This document shows positions 5,849 to 15,329 of a stretch of 43,664 nucleotides of DNA, piece by piece (position 1 is the first letter of the stretch; every line of letters starts with the position of its first letter). Source of the DNA: Escherichia phage Fraca; the sequence record LR597645; one strand, 5' to 3'. The notes under the pieces are model-generated. The model ran no database searches. It was not told where the DNA came from and saw nothing but the letters and a program-made list of their open reading frames with translations. The translations under genes were made by a program, and so were the position numbers.

Positions 5849-6097
5849 ATGAAACTGATCGCACTCAAACCGATTTATTTCGGCGGTACCGTCGTTACTG
5901 AAGGGCTTCCGCTGGAAACTCTGGAACAGCACGGGCGCGAGCTCATCAAGAAAGGTTATGCGAAGCTCGAAGAATCAGAAAATCCTGCAAAGCAGGAACA
6001 GCAGCAGGAACAGCAGCAGGAACAGCAGCAGGAACAGCAGCAGGAACAGCAGCAGGAACAGCCGGAATTAAAAGCGGAAAAGAAGGCGAAAAAATAA
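5849..6097 (+). CDS. Small head-region protein with EQQQ tandem-repeat tract
   Basis: 82 aa ORF between capsid and connector genes; contains (EQQQ)x5 encoded by a 12-bp tandem repeat. Confidence 0.55.
   Translation: MKLIALKPIYFGGTVVTEGLPLETLEQHGRELIKKGYAKLEESENPAKQEQQQEQQQEQQQEQQQEQQQEQPELKAEKKAKK
5993..6060 (+). repeat. Tandem repeat, 12-bp unit GAACAGCAGCAG x about 5.5
   Basis: Direct reading of 5992-6066. Confidence 0.9.
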
Positions 6098-6432: not shown

Positions 6433-6771
6433 ATGCAGGCCGGAAGACTGAGAGACAGGGTGGTGGTTCAGAACCTCACAACATCCAGAGATCCTTCTGG
6501 CCAGCCTGTTGAAGCATGGCATGACGGCGCAGAAACCTGGGCAGAAGTAAAGGGCATTAGTGGGCGCGAGTTGGTAGCCGCTGGTGCTGAAACCGCAGTC
6601 GCCACTATCAGGGTATGGACACGATTTCGTAGCGATATAACTGCTGCGTCCAGACTCAGGGTTATGACTGGCGCGTTCAAGGGGGCCATTTTGAATATCA
6701 TTGGTCCGCCAATCCCTGACTCTCGCGGTATTCAGCTCGAAATTCTTTGCAAACAGGGTACCGAAAAATGA
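6433..6771 (+). CDS. Head closure / head-tail adaptor protein
   Basis: 112 aa; AGGAGG RBS at 6422-6427; position after connector. Confidence 0.7.
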   Translation: MQAGRLRDRVVVQNLTTSRDPSGQPVEAWHDGAETWAEVKGISGRELVAAGAETAVATIRVWTRFRSDITAASRLRVMTGAFKGAILNIIGPPIPDSRGIQLEILCKQGTEK

Positions 6772-7217
6772 TTGAGACGAGCCTTGATTTTTCCGGGCTG
6801 AATGACATCGCAAAGGATCTGGAAGCGCTTAGCCGCGCTGAAAACAACAAGGTTCTGCGTGATGCCACGCGAGCCGGTGCCGAAGTGCTTAAGGAAGAAG
6901 TGATCGCCCGAGCTCCTGTGCGTACCGGGAAACTGAAAAAAAACGTGGTGGTGGTGACCCAAAAAAGCCGACGCCGCGGGGAAATTTCTTCCGGTGTCCA
7001 CATTCGTGGTGTTAACCCGCGCACCGGGAACAGCGATAACACGATGAAGGCGAATAACCCGAGAAACGCCTTTTACTGGCGATTCGTCGAAATGGGTACC
7101 GTTAACATGCCGCCGCACCCTTTCATTCGTCCCGCGTTCGATGTACGCCAGGAGCAGGCGACGGAGGTCGCGATCAGGCGCATGAACCAGGCCATTGACG
7201 AGGCATTAAGCAAATGA
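6768..7217 (+). CDS. HK97 gp10-like tail component
   Basis: ATG at 6768 overlaps upstream stop (ATGA); the track ORF 6747-7217 is trimmed to this start. Confidence 0.65.
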   Translation: MIETSLDFSGLNDIAKDLEALSRAENNKVLRDATRAGAEVLKEEVIARAPVRTGKLKKNVVVVTQKSRRRGEISSGVHIRGVNPRTGNSDNTMKANNPRNAFYWRFVEMGTVNMPPHPFIRPAFDVRQEQATEVAIRRMNQAIDEALSK

Positions 7218-7577: not shown

Positions 7578-7601
7578 AGACCGCTTCGGCGGTCTTTTTT
7601 T
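7578..7601 (+). terminator. Intrinsic terminator hairpin upstream of major tail gene
   Basis: AGACCGCTTCGGCGGTCT stem-loop followed by a T7 tract. Confidence 0.7.
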
Positions 7602-7614
7602 AACTGGAGAAACC

Positions 7615-8085
7615 ATGACCAGTAAGTATGAAGTCACGAAGGGGATGACATTTGCCGTCTCCGACGCACCCGTAACCGCTGATGATTTTAATTCACCAAC
7701 TTTCCCGGGGGCTGGCATTACCTGGCTGGAAGCGGCCTGTGCAACGAAGGAGATCACCTTCACCGGCGGCCAGAAAGGGGATATCGACGTCACCACGCTT
7801 TGTTCAACCGAACAGGAGCAAACCAATGGCCTTGCCGCGCCTGCTGAAATGAGCATTACCCGTAACTGGGTTGGCGATGAAGCAGCACAGGAGGCACTGC
7901 AGACCGCTTACGAAAATGACGAACTGCGCGCGCTGCGCGTGGTATTCCCGTCTGGCAACGGTTTCTACGTGCTGGTGGAGGTACGCCAGAGCTCATGGTC
8001 TGCTGCAACCTCTTCCGTTGTTGGCGCAACCTATTCTCTGCGTGTACGCGGCAAACCTAAACGCATCTACGCGTCTGGTTCCTGA
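7615..8085 (+). CDS. Major tail tube protein
   Basis: 156 aa; position between tail terminator and G/T chaperone; flanked by intrinsic terminators as for highly expressed tail tube genes. Confidence 0.8.
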   Translation: MTSKYEVTKGMTFAVSDAPVTADDFNSPTFPGAGITWLEAACATKEITFTGGQKGDIDVTTLCSTEQEQTNGLAAPAEMSITRNWVGDEAAQEALQTAYENDELRALRVVFPSGNGFYVLVEVRQSSWSAATSSVVGATYSLRVRGKPKRIYASGS

Positions 8086-8107
8086 GCGGCTTCGGCCGCT
8101 TTTTTTA
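8085..8107 (+). terminator. Intrinsic terminator downstream of major tail gene
   Basis: AGCGGCTTCGGCCGCT hairpin followed by a T7 tract. Confidence 0.7.
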
Positions 8108-8139
8108 TCCCTCCGATCATGTAACAAGAGAAAAATGAA

Positions 8140-8541
8140 ATGCAGCAAAAAACATCACAGAATTCATTACGCAACATGGCGCTTACAGCATCGAAAGCCT
8201 ATCGCACCAAAGAAGGTATCACGGTCCCTGAATGGGATGGCGCAAAGGTAACGCTGCGTGAACCCTCTGGCGATGCCTGGGTGAAATTCCGGGAGATCGT
8301 TAATCCCCAGCTCGCCGAGGGCGAAGAGGCACCGACGCTGACGGAGGCGGAAAAGTTTTTGCGTAACAAAGAGGCTGATGTGGTTCTGTTTATTGACGTT
8401 CTGCTTGATGAAAACGGCGAGCGAGTATTCAGCGATGAGGATCAGGAGCAGGTATCTAAAATTTATGGTCCTGTGCACTCCCGCCTGCTGGCTCAGGCCC
8501 TCAACCTCGGCATGAGCCAAGAAGAAGCGGGAAAGCCGTAA
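8140..8541 (+). CDS. G: Tail assembly chaperone (lambda gpG analogue)
   Basis: 133 aa ORF preceding the tape measure gene; ends with a GGGAAAG slippery site. Confidence 0.8.
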   Translation: MQQKTSQNSLRNMALTASKAYRTKEGITVPEWDGAKVTLREPSGDAWVKFREIVNPQLAEGEEAPTLTEAEKFLRNKEADVVLFIDVLLDENGERVFSDEDQEQVSKIYGPVHSRLLAQALNLGMSQEEAGKP

Positions 8542-8828
8542 AGCAGCCGCTGACCTTCTTCCTGATGTCGCTGGCGCTCCGGTTGGGGCGCACTCTCCAC
8601 GAACTGCGCCAGACCATGACAGCCAGCGAGCTCAAAATGTGGATCGAGTTCGACCGCATCAGTCCGATTGGTGACTGGCGCGCCGATGCTCAGGCGGCGC
8701 AGATCTCCGTTGCAATGCTGAACTCTCAGGGCGGGAAATTCACCATTCCTGACGTGATGCTGAAATGGGGTGAGCAGGAAGAAGGCGCTGAAGTCTCTGA
8801 ACTTGAAGAATGGATGTCCAGTCTTTGA
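8140..8828 (+). CDS. Tail assembly chaperone G-T fusion made by programmed -1 frameshift at 8529-8535
   Basis: Slippery heptamer G_GGA_AAG in the zero frame at 8529-8535; the -1 frame matches ORF 8565-8828 (frame congruent 0 mod 3). Confidence 0.75.
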
Positions 8829-8829
8829 T

Positions 8830-8851
8830 GCCCGCGGCTGCGGGCTTTTTT
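8830..8851 (+). terminator. Hairpin plus T-tract immediately upstream of tape measure start
   Basis: GCCCGCGGCTGCGGGC followed by TTTTTT, then ATG at 8863. Confidence 0.6.
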
Positions 8852-8862
8852 ATGGGTGAAAT

Positions 8863-11800
8863 ATGGCAACGCTGCGCGAGCTAATCATCAAAATTTCGGC
8901 GAACTCTTCTTCTTTCCAGTCAGAGATCGCCAGAGCGTCCCGCATGGGAACCGATTACTACCGCACTATGGAACAGGGCGGGAAAAAAGCTGCAGCGGCC
9001 ACGCGTGAAACTCAGCGGTCTTTGGCTGACCTGAATTCTCAGCTTGCAACCGTGCGATCCTCTGCTGCCGGGCTTGCCGGTGCGTGGGCTGGTGCATTTG
9101 CCACGCATCAGCTGATTCAGTTTGCCGACACGTGGAACCAGTTGAATGGGCGTCTTCGCCTTGCGTCCTCTTCCAGTGAGGATTACGTGCAATCCCAGCG
9201 CGTGCTGATGGAGATTAGCCAGCGCACCGGAACATCCCTCGAGGCAAACAGCAACCTGTACAGCAGAATTGCGCAGTCCCTGCGAGATGCCGGTTACGCT
9301 TCTGCTGACGTCGCAAAAGTTACGGAAACCGTAGCAACCTCACTGAAGCTGTCTGGCGCCAGTACCGAAGAGGCAAGTTCTGTTATCACCCAGCTTAGCC
9401 AGGCACTTGGCTCAGGCGTTTTGCGAGGTGAAGAATTTAACTCCATCATGGAGAACGGTGGCCGCCTGGCGAAACTGCTGGCTGATGGGCTGGGTACCAC
9501 TGTTGGTGGCCTGCGAAATATGGCCAACAACGGCGATCTGACGACCAACAAGATCGTCCCGCTGCTGACCAACGTTGAGATCCTCCGTAAAGAATTCGAC
9601 ACCCTTCCTGCATCCATCAGCGGATCTGCACAGAAAGTGCAAAACGCCTTTCTCGCATGGGTTGGCGGGGCGAATGATGCTGTCGGCGCATCATCCACGC
9701 TTTCTGGCGTGCTGGATGGTCTGGCGAATAACATCGATGATGTGGCAAATACAGCCGGTCTTCTGGTTGGTGTTGGCCTCGCTCGTTATTTTGGCAACAT
9801 GGTCGGCAGCGTTGCTCAGTCAACCCGGGCAGTCCTCGCTAATACGGCCGCCGAGGTCGCGCTGGCGCAGGCTCAGGTCCGTGGAGCTCAGGTTAGCGTT
9901 GCTGCTGGTCGCCAGGCTGTTTACCGCGCTCAACAGGCGCGTGCAGCGGCGACGAGTATTGAGGCTCAGATTGTAGCTGAGCGTAATCTTGCTGCTGCTC
10001 AGGCATCACTGAATACGGCGCTTGCTGGCAGGACTTCGGCCGTTAATAACCTCACCAATACAGCCTCGGTGATGTCCCGCCTGGGTAGTGGCGTTCTTGG
10101 TATTCTCGGTGGCTGGCCTGGAGTGATTATCGGTGCCGGCGCTGCGATGTATGGCCTGTATCAGCATACCCAGCAGGTGCACCGTGAGGCGGTAGGTTTT
10201 GCCAACAACCTCGACGAGATCAACACCAAGCTCCAGCAGATGTCGGTGCTTGGCCTGCGTTCGACCGCGGCTGATGCCCGTACATCTTTACAGGCGCAAA
10301 AACAGGACCTGGCCGACCTCGACTCTCAGATCGCGAAGGTGAAAGACAGCCTTAAGGCGGTTGACCAAATCCAGCAGGACTATAACCGCCATCCGACGCT
10401 GACCCTGATTAACACTTTCATGGACCAGGCCGACATCACGGCCAAAAATATCGAGCTGACCGATAAGCTGAACCAGCTGGAGTACCAGCGCGAACAGGCA
10501 GCCTCAAAAGTCGAGCAAACGCAGAAGCTGGTAAACCAGGCCAGCGATCTGGCCACGCAAAAGGCTATCGAACAGGCTGGCGCCGTCTCTATCCTGAAAG
10601 GTGCGTATGACCTGCTTAACCGCTCAATGTCAGCGACCGCTGGCGCCAAGCCGCCGCAATATGCCGGGCCCGTCGTTTCACTGGCAAACGCAACGCCTCA
10701 ACAGCAAACTGCACTGGAGCGCTCGCGCCGAGATAACGAGCTGGCCAGCCTAAGCGGTTTAGAGAAACTCCATCAGCAGCACGTGTATGAAGCAGAAGAC
10801 CTGAAGCTGACGGGAGCACTTTACACCCAGTACATCTACAACAAGGATCAGGCAGCCAAAAAAGATGCAGCGGCTGCGGAGGCAAAAAAAACCTCTACCG
10901 CCGCCTCGAAAGCACAGAGTAAAGCCGAGCGCGAAGCGGCCAGCACCGCCGAACAGTATTCCCGGAAAATGGCCGATCTGAGTGTGGCTATCGACGTGCA
11001 ACGCGTCAGGGCGACGGAAGGCGAAAAAGCCTCCGAGCTTTACGCGGCATCGCACCAGGCAGGCACTAAATGGACCGACGAGCAGCGCAGGGCGATCCAG
11101 GCATCATCAGCAGAGCTGGCAAAATGGACGCAAAAAGCCGACGAGAACGTGCGCAAGCAGCGCGAACAAGCTGATGCCCTGAAAGATTTAACTGAAGCGG
11201 CCCGAAAGTTCAGGGATGAGGCGACGCTGACAACCGAAACCGCAGGCATGAGCGATCGCCAGCGTAGCCGTTTCGACGAGACGCAACAGATCGACCGTGT
11301 TTTTGCTAAAACGGACGGCGGTACCGAGGCCATCGCGCAGCGCGCCGCAGCCCTCGATGCTCTGGATAAGAAATACAAGGCTATTGCAGCAGCTGAAGCG
11401 GATTGGATGTCCGGAGTATCACGCGGCTATGCAAACTGGTTTGATGAAATCAGCAATGTTTCCGGCACGGTTTCTGACGGGGTGAAAACCACACTCGACA
11501 GCGCGTTTAGTAATGTCACCTCAATGCTCGAAGGCAATAAGGTCAGCTGGAAATCCTGGGGTATCTCTGTTTTACAGATTATCGAAAAAGTGGCTCTGCA
11601 GATGGCGGTGGTAAGCGCGATGGGTGGGGCCTCTTCCGGTTCTGGCATCTTTGGCTCTCTCATCGGCAGTGTAGGCAGCTTCTTCGGGGGCGGGGCGGGA
11701 GCATCAGCCAGCACCGGTACGGCGGTTTCCAGTTACGGATCGAACTTCCAGTTTAACGCCAAAGGCGGCGTTTATGACTCTCCATCTCTGAGCGCTTTCA

Positions 11801-12144
11801 GTAATGGGATCGTCAGAAACCCCACCATGTTCGCTTTCGCGAAAGGCGGGGCCGGAATCATGGGCGAGGCCGGGCCGGAGGCAATCATGCCGCTGACTCG
11901 CGCACCGGATGGTTCACTCGGTGTTCGTGCGGTCGGCGCTAGTGGTGGTCAGTCTGTATCTTCGGCGCCACAGGTTTATATCACCATCGATGGCAACGGA
12001 AATACCTCCACGCAGACTTCACCCGGTCTTGAGCAATTTGGTGCTGATGTCGGTAAATATGTTGATCAGCGATATAAGCAGAACATCATGCGAGATATTC
12101 GCCCTGGCGGTGACATCTGGAACGCAATGAAAGGAACCCGATAA
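8863..12144 (+). CDS. Tail tape measure protein
   Basis: 1093 aa, Ala/Gln-rich coiled-coil protein downstream of the G/T chaperone. Confidence 0.9.
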   Translation: MATLRELIIKISANSSSFQSEIARASRMGTDYYRTMEQGGKKAAAATRETQRSLADLNSQLATVRSSAAGLAGAWAGAFATHQLIQFADTWNQLNGRLRLASSSSEDYVQSQRVLMEISQRTGTSLEANSNLYSRIAQSLRDAGYASADVAKVTETVATSLKLSGASTEEASSVITQLSQALGSGVLRGEEFNSIMENGGRLAKLLADGLGTTVGGLRNMANNGDLTTNKIVPLLTNVEILRKEFDTLPASISGSAQKVQNAFLAWVGGANDAVGASSTLSGVLDGLANNIDDVANTAGLLVGVGLARYFGNMVGSVAQSTRAVLANTAAEVALAQAQVRGAQVSVAAGRQAVYRAQQARAAATSIEAQIVAERNLAAAQASLNTALAGRTSAVNNLTNTASVMSRLGSGVLGILGGWPGVIIGAGAAMYGLYQHTQQVHREAVGFANNLDEINTKLQQMSVLGLRSTAADARTSLQAQKQDLADLDSQIAKVKDSLKAVDQIQQDYNRHPTLTLINTFMDQADITAKNIELTDKLNQLEYQREQAASKVEQTQKLVNQASDLATQKAIEQAGAVSILKGAYDLLNRSMSATAGAKPPQYAGPVVSLANATPQQQTALERSRRDNELASLSGLEKLHQQHVYEAEDLKLTGALYTQYIYNKDQAAKKDAAAAEAKKTSTAASKAQSKAEREAASTAEQYSRKMADLSVAIDVQRVRATEGEKASELYAASHQAGTKWTDEQRRAIQASSAELAKWTQKADENVRKQREQADALKDLTEAARKFRDEATLTTETAGMSDRQRSRFDETQQIDRVFAKTDGGTEAIAQRAAALDALDKKYKAIAAAEADWMSGVSRGYANWFDEISNVSGTVSDGVKTTLDSAFSNVTSMLEGNKVSWKSWGISVLQIIEKVALQMAVVSAMGGASSGSGIFGSLIGSVGSFFGGGAGASASTGTAVSSYGSNFQFNAKGGVYDSPSLSAFSNGIVRNPTMFAFAKGGAGIMGEAGPEAIMPLTRAPDGSLGVRAVGASGGQSVSSAPQVYITIDGNGNTSTQTSPGLEQFGADVGKYVDQRYKQNIMRDIRPGGDIWNAMKGTR

Positions 12145-13241: not shown

Positions 13242-13952
13242 ATGCGTCAGAAAACCATTGATGCTATTATGGCGCATGCAGCCGCTGAACATCCACGTGA
13301 GTGCTGTGGTGTGGTGGCGCAGAAAAGCCGCGTTGAACGTTATTTTCCTTGCCGGAATCTTGCCGCGGCGCCGGAGGACAATTTTGTCCTTTGCCCCGAA
13401 GATTATGCATCTGCTGAGGACTGGGGTACGGTGATCGCCATCGTTCACAGCCACCCTGACGCCACTACGCAGCCGAGCGAACTGGATAAAGCGCAATGCG
13501 ACGCAACGCTTTTACCCTGGCATATCGTGAGCTGGCCGGAGGGGGATTTACGCACCATCCAGCCGCGCGGAGAGCTGCCGTTGCTGGAGCGTCCTTTTGT
13601 GCTTGGTCACTTTGACTGCTGGGGGCTGGTAATGAGCTATTTCCGGCAAACTCATGGTATCGAACTCCACGATTACCGGGTTGATTATCCCTGGTGGGAA
13701 AACGACTACCCGGACAACTTCTATCAGGATTGCTGGTACGAATGCGGATTCCGTGAATTCGACGGGCCGCCGAAACCTGGCGATATGGTGATCATGCAGG
13801 TGCAGGCTGATAAGTGGAACCACGCGGGTATATTGCTGGAGGGCAATATGCTGCTGCACCACCTGTACGGTCACCTGAGTCAGCGAGTACCATATGGCGG
13901 TTACTGGCAGGAACGAACGATGAAGATTCTCCGTTACAAATCTCTGTGCTAA
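13242..13952 (+). CDS. K: Tail assembly protein K (JAB/MPN plus NlpC/P60-like)
   Basis: 236 aa; HSHP metal-binding motif and Cys-containing C-terminal half, as in lambda gpK. Confidence 0.8.
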   Translation: MRQKTIDAIMAHAAAEHPRECCGVVAQKSRVERYFPCRNLAAAPEDNFVLCPEDYASAEDWGTVIAIVHSHPDATTQPSELDKAQCDATLLPWHIVSWPEGDLRTIQPRGELPLLERPFVLGHFDCWGLVMSYFRQTHGIELHDYRVDYPWWENDYPDNFYQDCWYECGFREFDGPPKPGDMVIMQVQADKWNHAGILLEGNMLLHHLYGHLSQRVPYGGYWQERTMKILRYKSLC

Positions 13953-13984
13953 CCTTTTGCAAAACGAAAAAAGGGGTTAGGGAT

Positions 13985-14332
13985 ATGAGGAAATTTCTTT
14001 CGATATTAGCGTGTAGCCTGATTATTGTTGGTTGCACACCTTCTGAAAAGGATTTTATTGACATGGGGGAGTCCTTGGTCAAAGACACCCTTAAAGATCC
14101 GGACAGTGCCAAGTTTGAATCATTTTTCCGTGATTTTGGTGAAAATTCTGGATATGTTTGCGGTTATGTGAATGCTAAAAATTCATACGGCGCATACACG
14201 GGTAAAAAACCATATTATGTGCGGATTGAGGTCAAAGATGGAAAGGTCAATAATCATGGACCAATCATCATTATTAATGACCAAGACCAGAAGAAAATTG
14301 ATTCCTATGAGTCAATCTGTCAAAGGGACTGA
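13985..14332 (+). CDS. Lipoprotein (moron in the tail module)
   Basis: ATG at 13985 with GGGG RBS; signal peptide MRKFLSILACSLIIVGC with lipobox; AT-rich relative to neighbours. Confidence 0.65.
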   Translation: MRKFLSILACSLIIVGCTPSEKDFIDMGESLVKDTLKDPDSAKFESFFRDFGENSGYVCGYVNAKNSYGAYTGKKPYYVRIEVKDGKVNNHGPIIIINDQDQKKIDSYESICQRD

Positions 14333-14338
14333 TATGCC

Positions 14339-14674
14339 ATGAAAAAGATTATCCTCCCAATTTTTATCTTCCTGCTGATGGGATGTTCTGTTTCTTCACT
14401 AGAAGAACAAAAACCTATCCTATCAGAGCATTCAACAAAAACTGTTGATGAGGTTAATCGTTGCCTTTCTCCTAAATGGGTGGAGCTACGATCTTCAAGC
14501 TCAAGCATACCCACTGAATCAGGATACAAAATCACAGCATCAGACGATATATTCGGTGCTCTTTCGGTGGTGAATATCGATAAATCAGCGACAGGCGGAA
14601 GCGATATAAAGGTTTATGCCGTCGCGAAAGGATGGAACGACCACTGGGCTACGGCCGCCAGATCATGTCTTTGA
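14339..14674 (+). CDS. Lipoprotein (second moron in the tail module)
   Basis: 111 aa; signal peptide MKKIILPIFIFLLMGC with lipobox; AT-rich. Confidence 0.65.
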   Translation: MKKIILPIFIFLLMGCSVSSLEEQKPILSEHSTKTVDEVNRCLSPKWVELRSSSSSIPTESGYKITASDDIFGALSVVNIDKSATGGSDIKVYAVAKGWNDHWATAARSCL

Positions 14675-14723: not shown

Positions 14724-15329
14724 ATGAAAATGTCAGAGGTTATGACCAGAATTGAGCTCGGCGGTGTTTTGGGTAAAACCTACGGGAAGGTTCACCATCG
14801 TCTAATAAGAACAACCGCAGAAGCGATAAACTCACTTACAAAAACAATAGACGGGCTGGAGAAATTTTTGATAACCAGCAAAGCAAGGGGCCTGACCTAC
14901 GCCGTCTTTAAAGATAAAAAAAATATCGGAAAAGATGATTTTGGTTTTCCGGTAACAGGTGAAGTTATTCGAATTGTCCCTGTAGTGATCGGAAGTAAAA
15001 AAGCTGGAGTTTTACAGACAATTCTTGGAGCTGTTCTTGTCGTTGCGGGGATTGCAGTTGGAATGCTTTCTGGTGGAACACTATCTGCTGTTGGTTACGG
15101 AGCCGCGAAGTTTGGTGCAGCTATGATCGCTGGTGGAGTTGTTCAGATGCTATCGCCTCAACCCGGGGGCCTGGCCAGCAAACAAAGCGCAGATAACCGT
15201 GCATCGTATGCGTTCGGCGGGGTGACAAATACCGCCGCACAGGGTTACCCGGTTCCGCTCCTTTACGGCCGCCGGCGAATCGGCGGGGCAATTATTTCCG
15301 CCGGAATTTATGTCGAAGATCAGCAGTAG
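14724..15329 (+). CDS. I: Tail assembly protein I (lambda gpI-like)
   Basis: 201 aa with a Gly/Ala-rich hydrophobic C-terminal half, as in gpI; position between K and J. Confidence 0.8.
   Translation: MKMSEVMTRIELGGVLGKTYGKVHHRLIRTTAEAINSLTKTIDGLEKFLITSKARGLTYAVFKDKKNIGKDDFGFPVTGEVIRIVPVVIGSKKAGVLQTILGAVLVVAGIAVGMLSGGTLSAVGYGAAKFGAAMIAGGVVQMLSPQPGGLASKQSADNRASYAFGGVTNTAAQGYPVPLLYGRRRIGGAIISAGIYVEDQQ

Follow-up and report, generated by a model that had tools for sequence, protein, structure and literature searches.

A probable lambda-type -1 frameshift site joining the tail chaperone frames G and T of Escherichia phage Fraca

Background

Is the small open reading frame (ORF) that precedes the tape-measure gene of Escherichia phage Fraca a gene in its own right, or is it translated only as an extension of the tail assembly chaperone encoded immediately upstream? 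The question is raised by a heptanucleotide, GGGAAAG, at the 3' end of the chaperone ORF. A preliminary description of the sequence had interpreted this as a canonical -1 frameshift site joining the two frames, as in phage lambda. We have analysed the entire 43,664 nucleotide stretch (sequence record LR597645), referred to below as the window, and we conclude that a programmed -1 ribosomal frameshift of the lambda G/GT type very probably operates at this locus in what is a lambdoid, HK97-like siphophage. This reading is based on the sequence and on comparison with related phages.

The lambda G/G-T frameshift was described by Levin, Hendrix & Casjens (1993) and by Xu, Hendrix & Duda (2004, 2013, 2014), and is considered here as presented in PMC5009743 and PMC3296357 (the 2004 article in Mol Cell as cited in PMC5009743 and PMC10885494). 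The lambda slippery sequence is GGGAAAG, at which the zero frame is retained in approximately 96% of cases and a shift occurs in approximately 4% (PMC3296357 Table 1). The tape-measure protein is bound by numerous copies of gpG and a small number of gpGT (approximately 30:1), with the major tail subunit brought in by the T domain, and both chaperones are absent from the virion (PMC5009743). The G:GT ratio is tuned by thiolation of U34 of tRNA-Lys (PMC3296357).

The slippery site and its reading frames

The heptamer is located on the + strand at 8529-8535. The chaperone ORF (8140-8541), referred to as G, terminates with the codons GAA GCG GGA AAG CCG TAA, so that the phase of the heptamer in this ORF is G_GGA_AAG. 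The codon carrying its first G, GCG, is the fourth before the stop codon TAA (8539-8541) and its lysine codon, AAG, is the second. Both the phase and the distance from the stop are therefore as originally proposed. The -1 frame is open, without a stop, from 8460 to 8828 and is also that of the downstream ORF (8565-8828), referred to as T, again in agreement with the preliminary description. Starting from the heptamer it reads GGG AAA GCC GTA AAG CAG CCG CTG ACC TTC TTC CTG ATG, where the final codon is the nominal start of T at 8565. A check for a -1 frame stop between 8529 and 8565, which that description had suggested, found none.

The open -1 frame overlaps the 3' end of the G ORF by 27 codons. 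Both a scan and direct reading of this overlap failed to identify a second heptamer or a Z_ZZN tetramer that might serve as a further slip site.

Tail module and protein families

The two ORFs form part of a conventional tail gene cluster. This has the order major tail protein, G, T and tape measure, followed by homologues of lambda M, L and K. The upstream neighbour (7615-8085, + strand) encodes the major tail (tube) protein (phrog_158, 1e-40; PF16460 and PF08813). The downstream neighbour (8863-12144, + strand) is the tape-measure gene, the presumed client of the chaperones, which matches PF20155 TMP_3 (1.6e-55) and phrog_339 (2.5e-302) as well as PF06120 and PF09718.

G (8140-8541, + strand) is the zero-frame product, a protein of 133 aa and 14.9 kDa identical to VUF53142.1 (Escherichia phage Fraca). 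It matches PF06222 Phage_TAC_1 with 125.7 bits (cut-off 25) over profile positions 2-123 of 124, and phrog_344, 'tail assembly chaperone', at 3e-39. Among solved structures, the closest is PDB 2OB9, 'Tail assembly chaperone' (1.8e-29). ORF 8565-8828 matches PF06223 Phage_tail_T with 71.9 bits (cut-off 25.9) and also phrog_337. Together with their position between the major tail and tape-measure genes, the PF06222 and PF06223 matches support the assignment of both frames to tail chaperones made in the preliminary description. NCBIfam includes no model that matches G, T or the fusion.

The -1 extension after the slip (8535-8828, + strand) comprises 97 codons plus a stop codon, TGA, at 8826-8828, and carries the T domain. 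The predicted G-T fusion, 8140-8535 joined to 8535-8828, would be a protein of 229 aa and 25.8 kDa, compared with 9.9 kDa for a free T initiated at ATG 8565. Residues 8-217 of the fusion match phrog_14766, a family of fused proteins (2e-66). The tryptic peptide spanning the junction, predicted to be QPLTFFLMSLALR, would be diagnostic for the fusion since it is not obtainable from a start at ATG 8565.

Proposed mechanism

Most ribosomes would read ORF 8140-8541 to its stop codon and produce the 133-aa chaperone G. In a minority, with tRNA-Gly on GGA in the P site and tRNA-Lys(UUU) on AAG in the A site, both tRNAs would move back by one base and re-pair with GGG and AAA. From GCC 8535 onwards these ribosomes would read the -1 frame, terminating at 8826-8828 and so generating the G-T fusion. 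The same X_XXA_AAG class of site, decoded by tRNA-Lys(UUU), is found in Escherichia coli dnaX and in IS911/IS3-type elements (PMC4066793), and the slip proposed here follows from the sequence and from what is established for such sites.

Production of the fusion, its abundance relative to G and its part in assembly are all inferred. If the lambda model applies, the tape-measure protein would be coated by G in many copies and by GT in few, the T domain would recruit the major tail protein and the tube would then polymerise to the correct length, with neither chaperone retained in the virion.

Comparison with lambda and HK97

The preliminary description considered the arrangement to be 'exactly as in lambda G/GT'. 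This is correct for the signal and for the gene order. The heptamer, G_GGA_AAG, and the codon that precedes it, GCG, are identical in the two phages, the site is close to the 3' end of G with T in the -1 frame in both, and both have the order major tail, G, T, tape measure. Lambda T is also a member of PF06223 (54.1 bits compared with 71.9 for the window T). However, the description is not correct for the G protein itself. Lambda G belongs to PF06894 Phage_TAC_2 (206.9 bits) while the window G belongs to PF06222 and gives no match to PF06894 at E <= 0.01; a BLASTP comparison of the two G proteins gives E = 20. We have therefore rejected inclusion of the window G in the lambda gpG family. The two T proteins are not significantly similar by BLASTP and their similarity is limited to the level of the shared PF06223 profile. 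There are also differences in dimension: the site lies two codons from the stop in the window and six in lambda, and the T extension is 97 residues in the window compared with approximately 144 in lambda.

The closer model is HK97, where both halves of the gp13/gp14 pair (NC_002167; structure PDB 2OB9) belong to the same protein families as those of the window (gp13 matches PF06222 at 1.2e-60). The HK97 RefSeq record annotates the gp13-gp14 product as 'translated due to a -1 frameshift'. The window fusion is 53% identical, ungapped through the junction, to this product as reconstructed from the annotated -1 join (224 aa, the length implied by the join), and the HK97 slip position falls in the same alignment column. 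The HK97 site, like that of mEpX1, is G_GAA_AAG, which allows perfect re-pairing only at the A-site A_AAG, whereas that of the window is the fully canonical G_GGA_AAG. In addition, T and the tape-measure gene are separated in HK97 by a moron gene, gp15, which has no counterpart in the window. To judge from these comparisons, the signal and the architecture are those of lambda while the chaperone half is of the HK97 type.

The closest relatives are members of the Hendrixvirinae: mEp390, HK542, ECP1, LMessi, mEp506 and a prophage of E. coli UMNK88. These share 96-97.5% DNA identity with the window over 7600-8900 and are identical to it in heptamer, spacing and frames, with CAG at 8518-8520 where the window has CAA. 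In all of these records G and T are included as two separate CDS and no slippage is annotated.

Conservation of the site

To extend the comparison, IMG/VR was scanned with an alignment of ten G homologues. This identified 80 loci with 61-98% identity in G, of which 79 could be evaluated. All 79 carry a zero-frame A_AAG at the end of G: GGGAAAG in 73, A_AAA_AAG in three, G_GCA_AAG in two and G_GAA_AAG in one. The -1 frame extends 95 codons beyond the G stop in 77 of the 79. The exceptions are one locus cut by the end of its contig (L061) and one (L088) in which a stop closes the T frame 58 codons beyond that of G; the latter may reflect either truncation of T or an error in sequencing.

Annotation treats T as a separate gene at 15 homologous loci, and at every one of these it occupies the -1 frame. 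A tblastn search of 50,697 phage records gave 197 that cover at least 80% of the fusion and, among the matches listed, each one that spans both halves is split into two segments that differ in frame.

The A-site A_AAG is constant across homologues, the exception being GGGAAAC in a Streptomyces phage. The P-site codon is more variable: GGA and AAA, but also GAA (in HK97, mEpX1 and ENT39118) and GCA (in a Klebsiella phage). HK97, mEpX1, ENT39118 and the Klebsiella phage do not carry a strict X_XXY_YYZ heptamer but G_GAA_AAG or A_GCA_AAG, sites at which only the A-site tRNA can re-pair perfectly. The family therefore tolerates a weak P site and this could mean that the G:GT ratio differs between phages. 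[quoted passage not shown]

How is T translated?

Clearly, the alternative that merits most attention is that T is an independent gene with a start of its own at ATG 8565, used either de novo or by re-initiation after the G stop 24 nt upstream, and that the heptamer is incidental. We consider this quite unlikely. It has several points in its favour: the ORF has an ATG, this is retained in 77 of the 79 IMG/VR relatives, and T appears as a separate CDS not only in mEp390, HK542, ECP1 and the UMNK88 prophage but in hundreds of genomes. Moreover, the equivalent ATG is overlapped by the G stop in phi1026b and PHB09, as is typical of translationally coupled genes. Against this, ATG 8565 has no Shine-Dalgarno sequence: the 18 nt upstream pair with the 3' tail of 16S rRNA at +0.7 kcal/mol, the only positive value, and thus the worst, among the 19 gene starts of the module. 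The 23 nt between the G stop and this ATG (8542-8564), 'intergenic' in database annotation, also behave as codons of the -1 frame. In the 73 relatives with GGGAAAG, the 36 nt that follow the slip (8535-8570) show 12 kinds of substitution, of which 11 are synonymous in the -1 frame and 10 are at third positions of its codons. The 8542-8564 stretch therefore evolves as -1 frame coding sequence and is under purifying selection in that frame upstream of the nominal T start. The residues encoded there (P, F and F/L) are conserved in distant homologues as part of a motif, (V/A)xxP..FLMxLALRxGRT, that extends from Escherichia phages to those of Proteus, Salmonella, Klebsiella, Burkholderia and Bordetella. 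In two IMG/VR relatives (L095 and L097; region 1570-1701 in each), ATG 8565 is replaced by TTC (Phe). The T frame of both has no ATG until codon 34, which lies within the conserved domain and lacks a Shine-Dalgarno sequence. Thus the methionine at 8565 is a residue of the FLMxLALRxGRT motif rather than a start and, as judged from their sequences, these natural variants could express the full T domain only through frameshifting. Conservation of the slippery A_AAG in all relatives is also at odds with an incidental heptamer, and for neither lambda nor HK97 is the T part known or annotated other than as a fusion (PMC5009743; HK97 record). Some minor independent initiation, or re-initiation, may nevertheless take place at ATG 8565.

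Two further explanations dispense with ribosomal frameshifting and both seem to us exceedingly improbable. One is that the heptamer arose by chance and that T survives only as a decayed or non-functional remnant. Slippery-type heptamers are certainly not rare: GGGAAAG itself occurs four times in the window (both strands counted), and there are 18 in-frame X_XXY_YYZ heptamers in the 5725 codon positions of the 18 + strand genes of the window, with no sign of function for those elsewhere. However, the number expected by chance in a two-frame overlap of 27 codons is only approximately 0.085 for any X_XXY_YYZ and approximately 0.005 for X_XXA_AAG. The heptamer at 8529-8535 is the only X_XXA_AAG among the 18 and is followed by the longest open -1 frame (99 codons). 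A remnant is equally difficult to reconcile with the score of the T domain against PF06223, with the 95 codons that remain open past the G stop in almost all relatives, or with the overwhelmingly synonymous substitutions in the T frame; these conservation data effectively refute it. The other explanation places the change of frame in the RNA: RNA polymerase slippage on the A run would add or drop a base, with no role for the ribosome. Some relatives do carry AAAAAAG, where six or seven A residues approach the lengths at which slippage occurs (cases are reviewed in PMC5009743). The window and 73 relatives have only three, far too few (PMC5009743), and the feature that is conserved is the phase-specific A_AAG needed for re-pairing of tRNA-Lys (PMC4066793). 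Transcriptional slippage was rejected on account of this run of three. A programmed -1 ribosomal frameshift thus remains by far the preferred reading.

Stimulatory elements and efficiency

Frameshift signals such as those of dnaX and IS911/IS3 rely on a hairpin or pseudoknot 3' of the slip site together with a Shine-Dalgarno-like element 5' of it. In the window we found neither a structure 5-9 nt after the heptamer nor a Shine-Dalgarno-like element of the dnaX/IS3/IS911 kind. The best fold of the 105 nt that follow the heptamer begins 27 nt downstream and has a z-score of -1.77. Folding 24 diverse relatives as an alignment yielded a covariation term of 0.05 and no conserved structure, and a search of the whole window against Rfam gave no match. 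A conserved downstream stimulator was rejected on these grounds. A tRNA scan identified no tRNA genes.

Upstream, many relatives have a Shine-Dalgarno-like AGGA, formed by CAG GAA, 6 nt 5' of the heptamer. This is absent from the window, where the glutamine codon at 8518-8520 is the synonymous CAA; CAG is present in 77 of the 79 relatives, although these are closely related loci and the count does not constitute independent evidence. The optimal spacing of such an element in work with dnaX is 10-14 nt, and the 6 nt observed in the relatives is shorter.

Of the -1 motifs measured in E. coli, G_GGA_AAG ranks among the three with the highest efficiency (PMC4066793). The rate of shifting in the window may nevertheless fall well below the approximately 4% of lambda, because V_VVA_AAG heptamers without a stimulator shift at only approximately 0.3% in reporter constructs (PMC4066793). 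We have also considered whether the G:GT ratio is tuned by context in addition to the heptamer, through the AGGA that depends on CAG and through the near-adjacent zero-frame stop. This is an unlikely refinement. If true, either the rate of shifting in the window phage would differ measurably from that in its relatives, or a small amount of T would arise from independent starts as well.

Neighbouring features of the genome

Several other features were noted during the analysis. Outside the tail module, the genome is mosaic and lambdoid: if the window is divided into two halves, the coverage of each by any single phage record does not exceed about 50%.

Terminator-like GC hairpins with T runs are present on the + strand at 7578-7595, 8084-8101 and 8830-8845, where they bracket the major tail gene and follow T. 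The last of these, identified by a consensus scan, lies between T and the tape-measure gene. 'Putative terminators' are annotated around the same genes in HK97 and HK542, including between the G/T pair and the tape measure, and HK97 resembles the window in having such hairpins both there and after the major tail gene. The three hairpins may govern how much tube protein, chaperone and tape measure is made relative to one another.

A perfect 12-nt tandem repeat with six copies (5991-6062) encodes (QQQE)n. The 82-aa ORF that contains it (5849-6097) immediately follows the major capsid gene and matches DUF7210 over its first 38 residues; the number of repeats is likely to vary. The ORF at 6747-7217 is assigned a TTG start (6747) with almost no Shine-Dalgarno pairing (-3.0 kcal/mol). 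The length of its homologue in mEp390, UMNK88 and ECP1, 450 nt, suggests that translation really begins at ATG 6768 (MIETSLDF...). Finally, two ORFs (approximately 13982-14332, and 14339-14674) have no Pfam match and are located between a K-like gene (13242-13952) and a tail gene (14724-15329). They look like morons inserted in the tail-tip module. The product of the first begins MRKFLSILACSLIIVGC..., a lipoprotein-type signal.

Conclusions

Both in the window phage and in its closest relatives, T is recorded as a free-standing protein of 87 aa, either 'phage tail assembly protein T' or 'DUF4035'. Most likely, no such free-standing protein exists. The exact sequence of the G-T fusion is absent from a collection of 15 billion proteins. 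The gene model should be corrected to join(8140..8535, 8535..8828) with ribosomal slippage. The value of this is mainly one of curation: frameshifting of this type is thoroughly known from lambda and HK97 and is conserved across long-tailed phages, and what is new here is an instance that had not been annotated. For the family as a whole, the homologous loci provide a clean comparative data set in which, within a single family of chaperones, the A-site A_AAG is invariant while the P site drifts between GGA, AAA, GAA and GCA.
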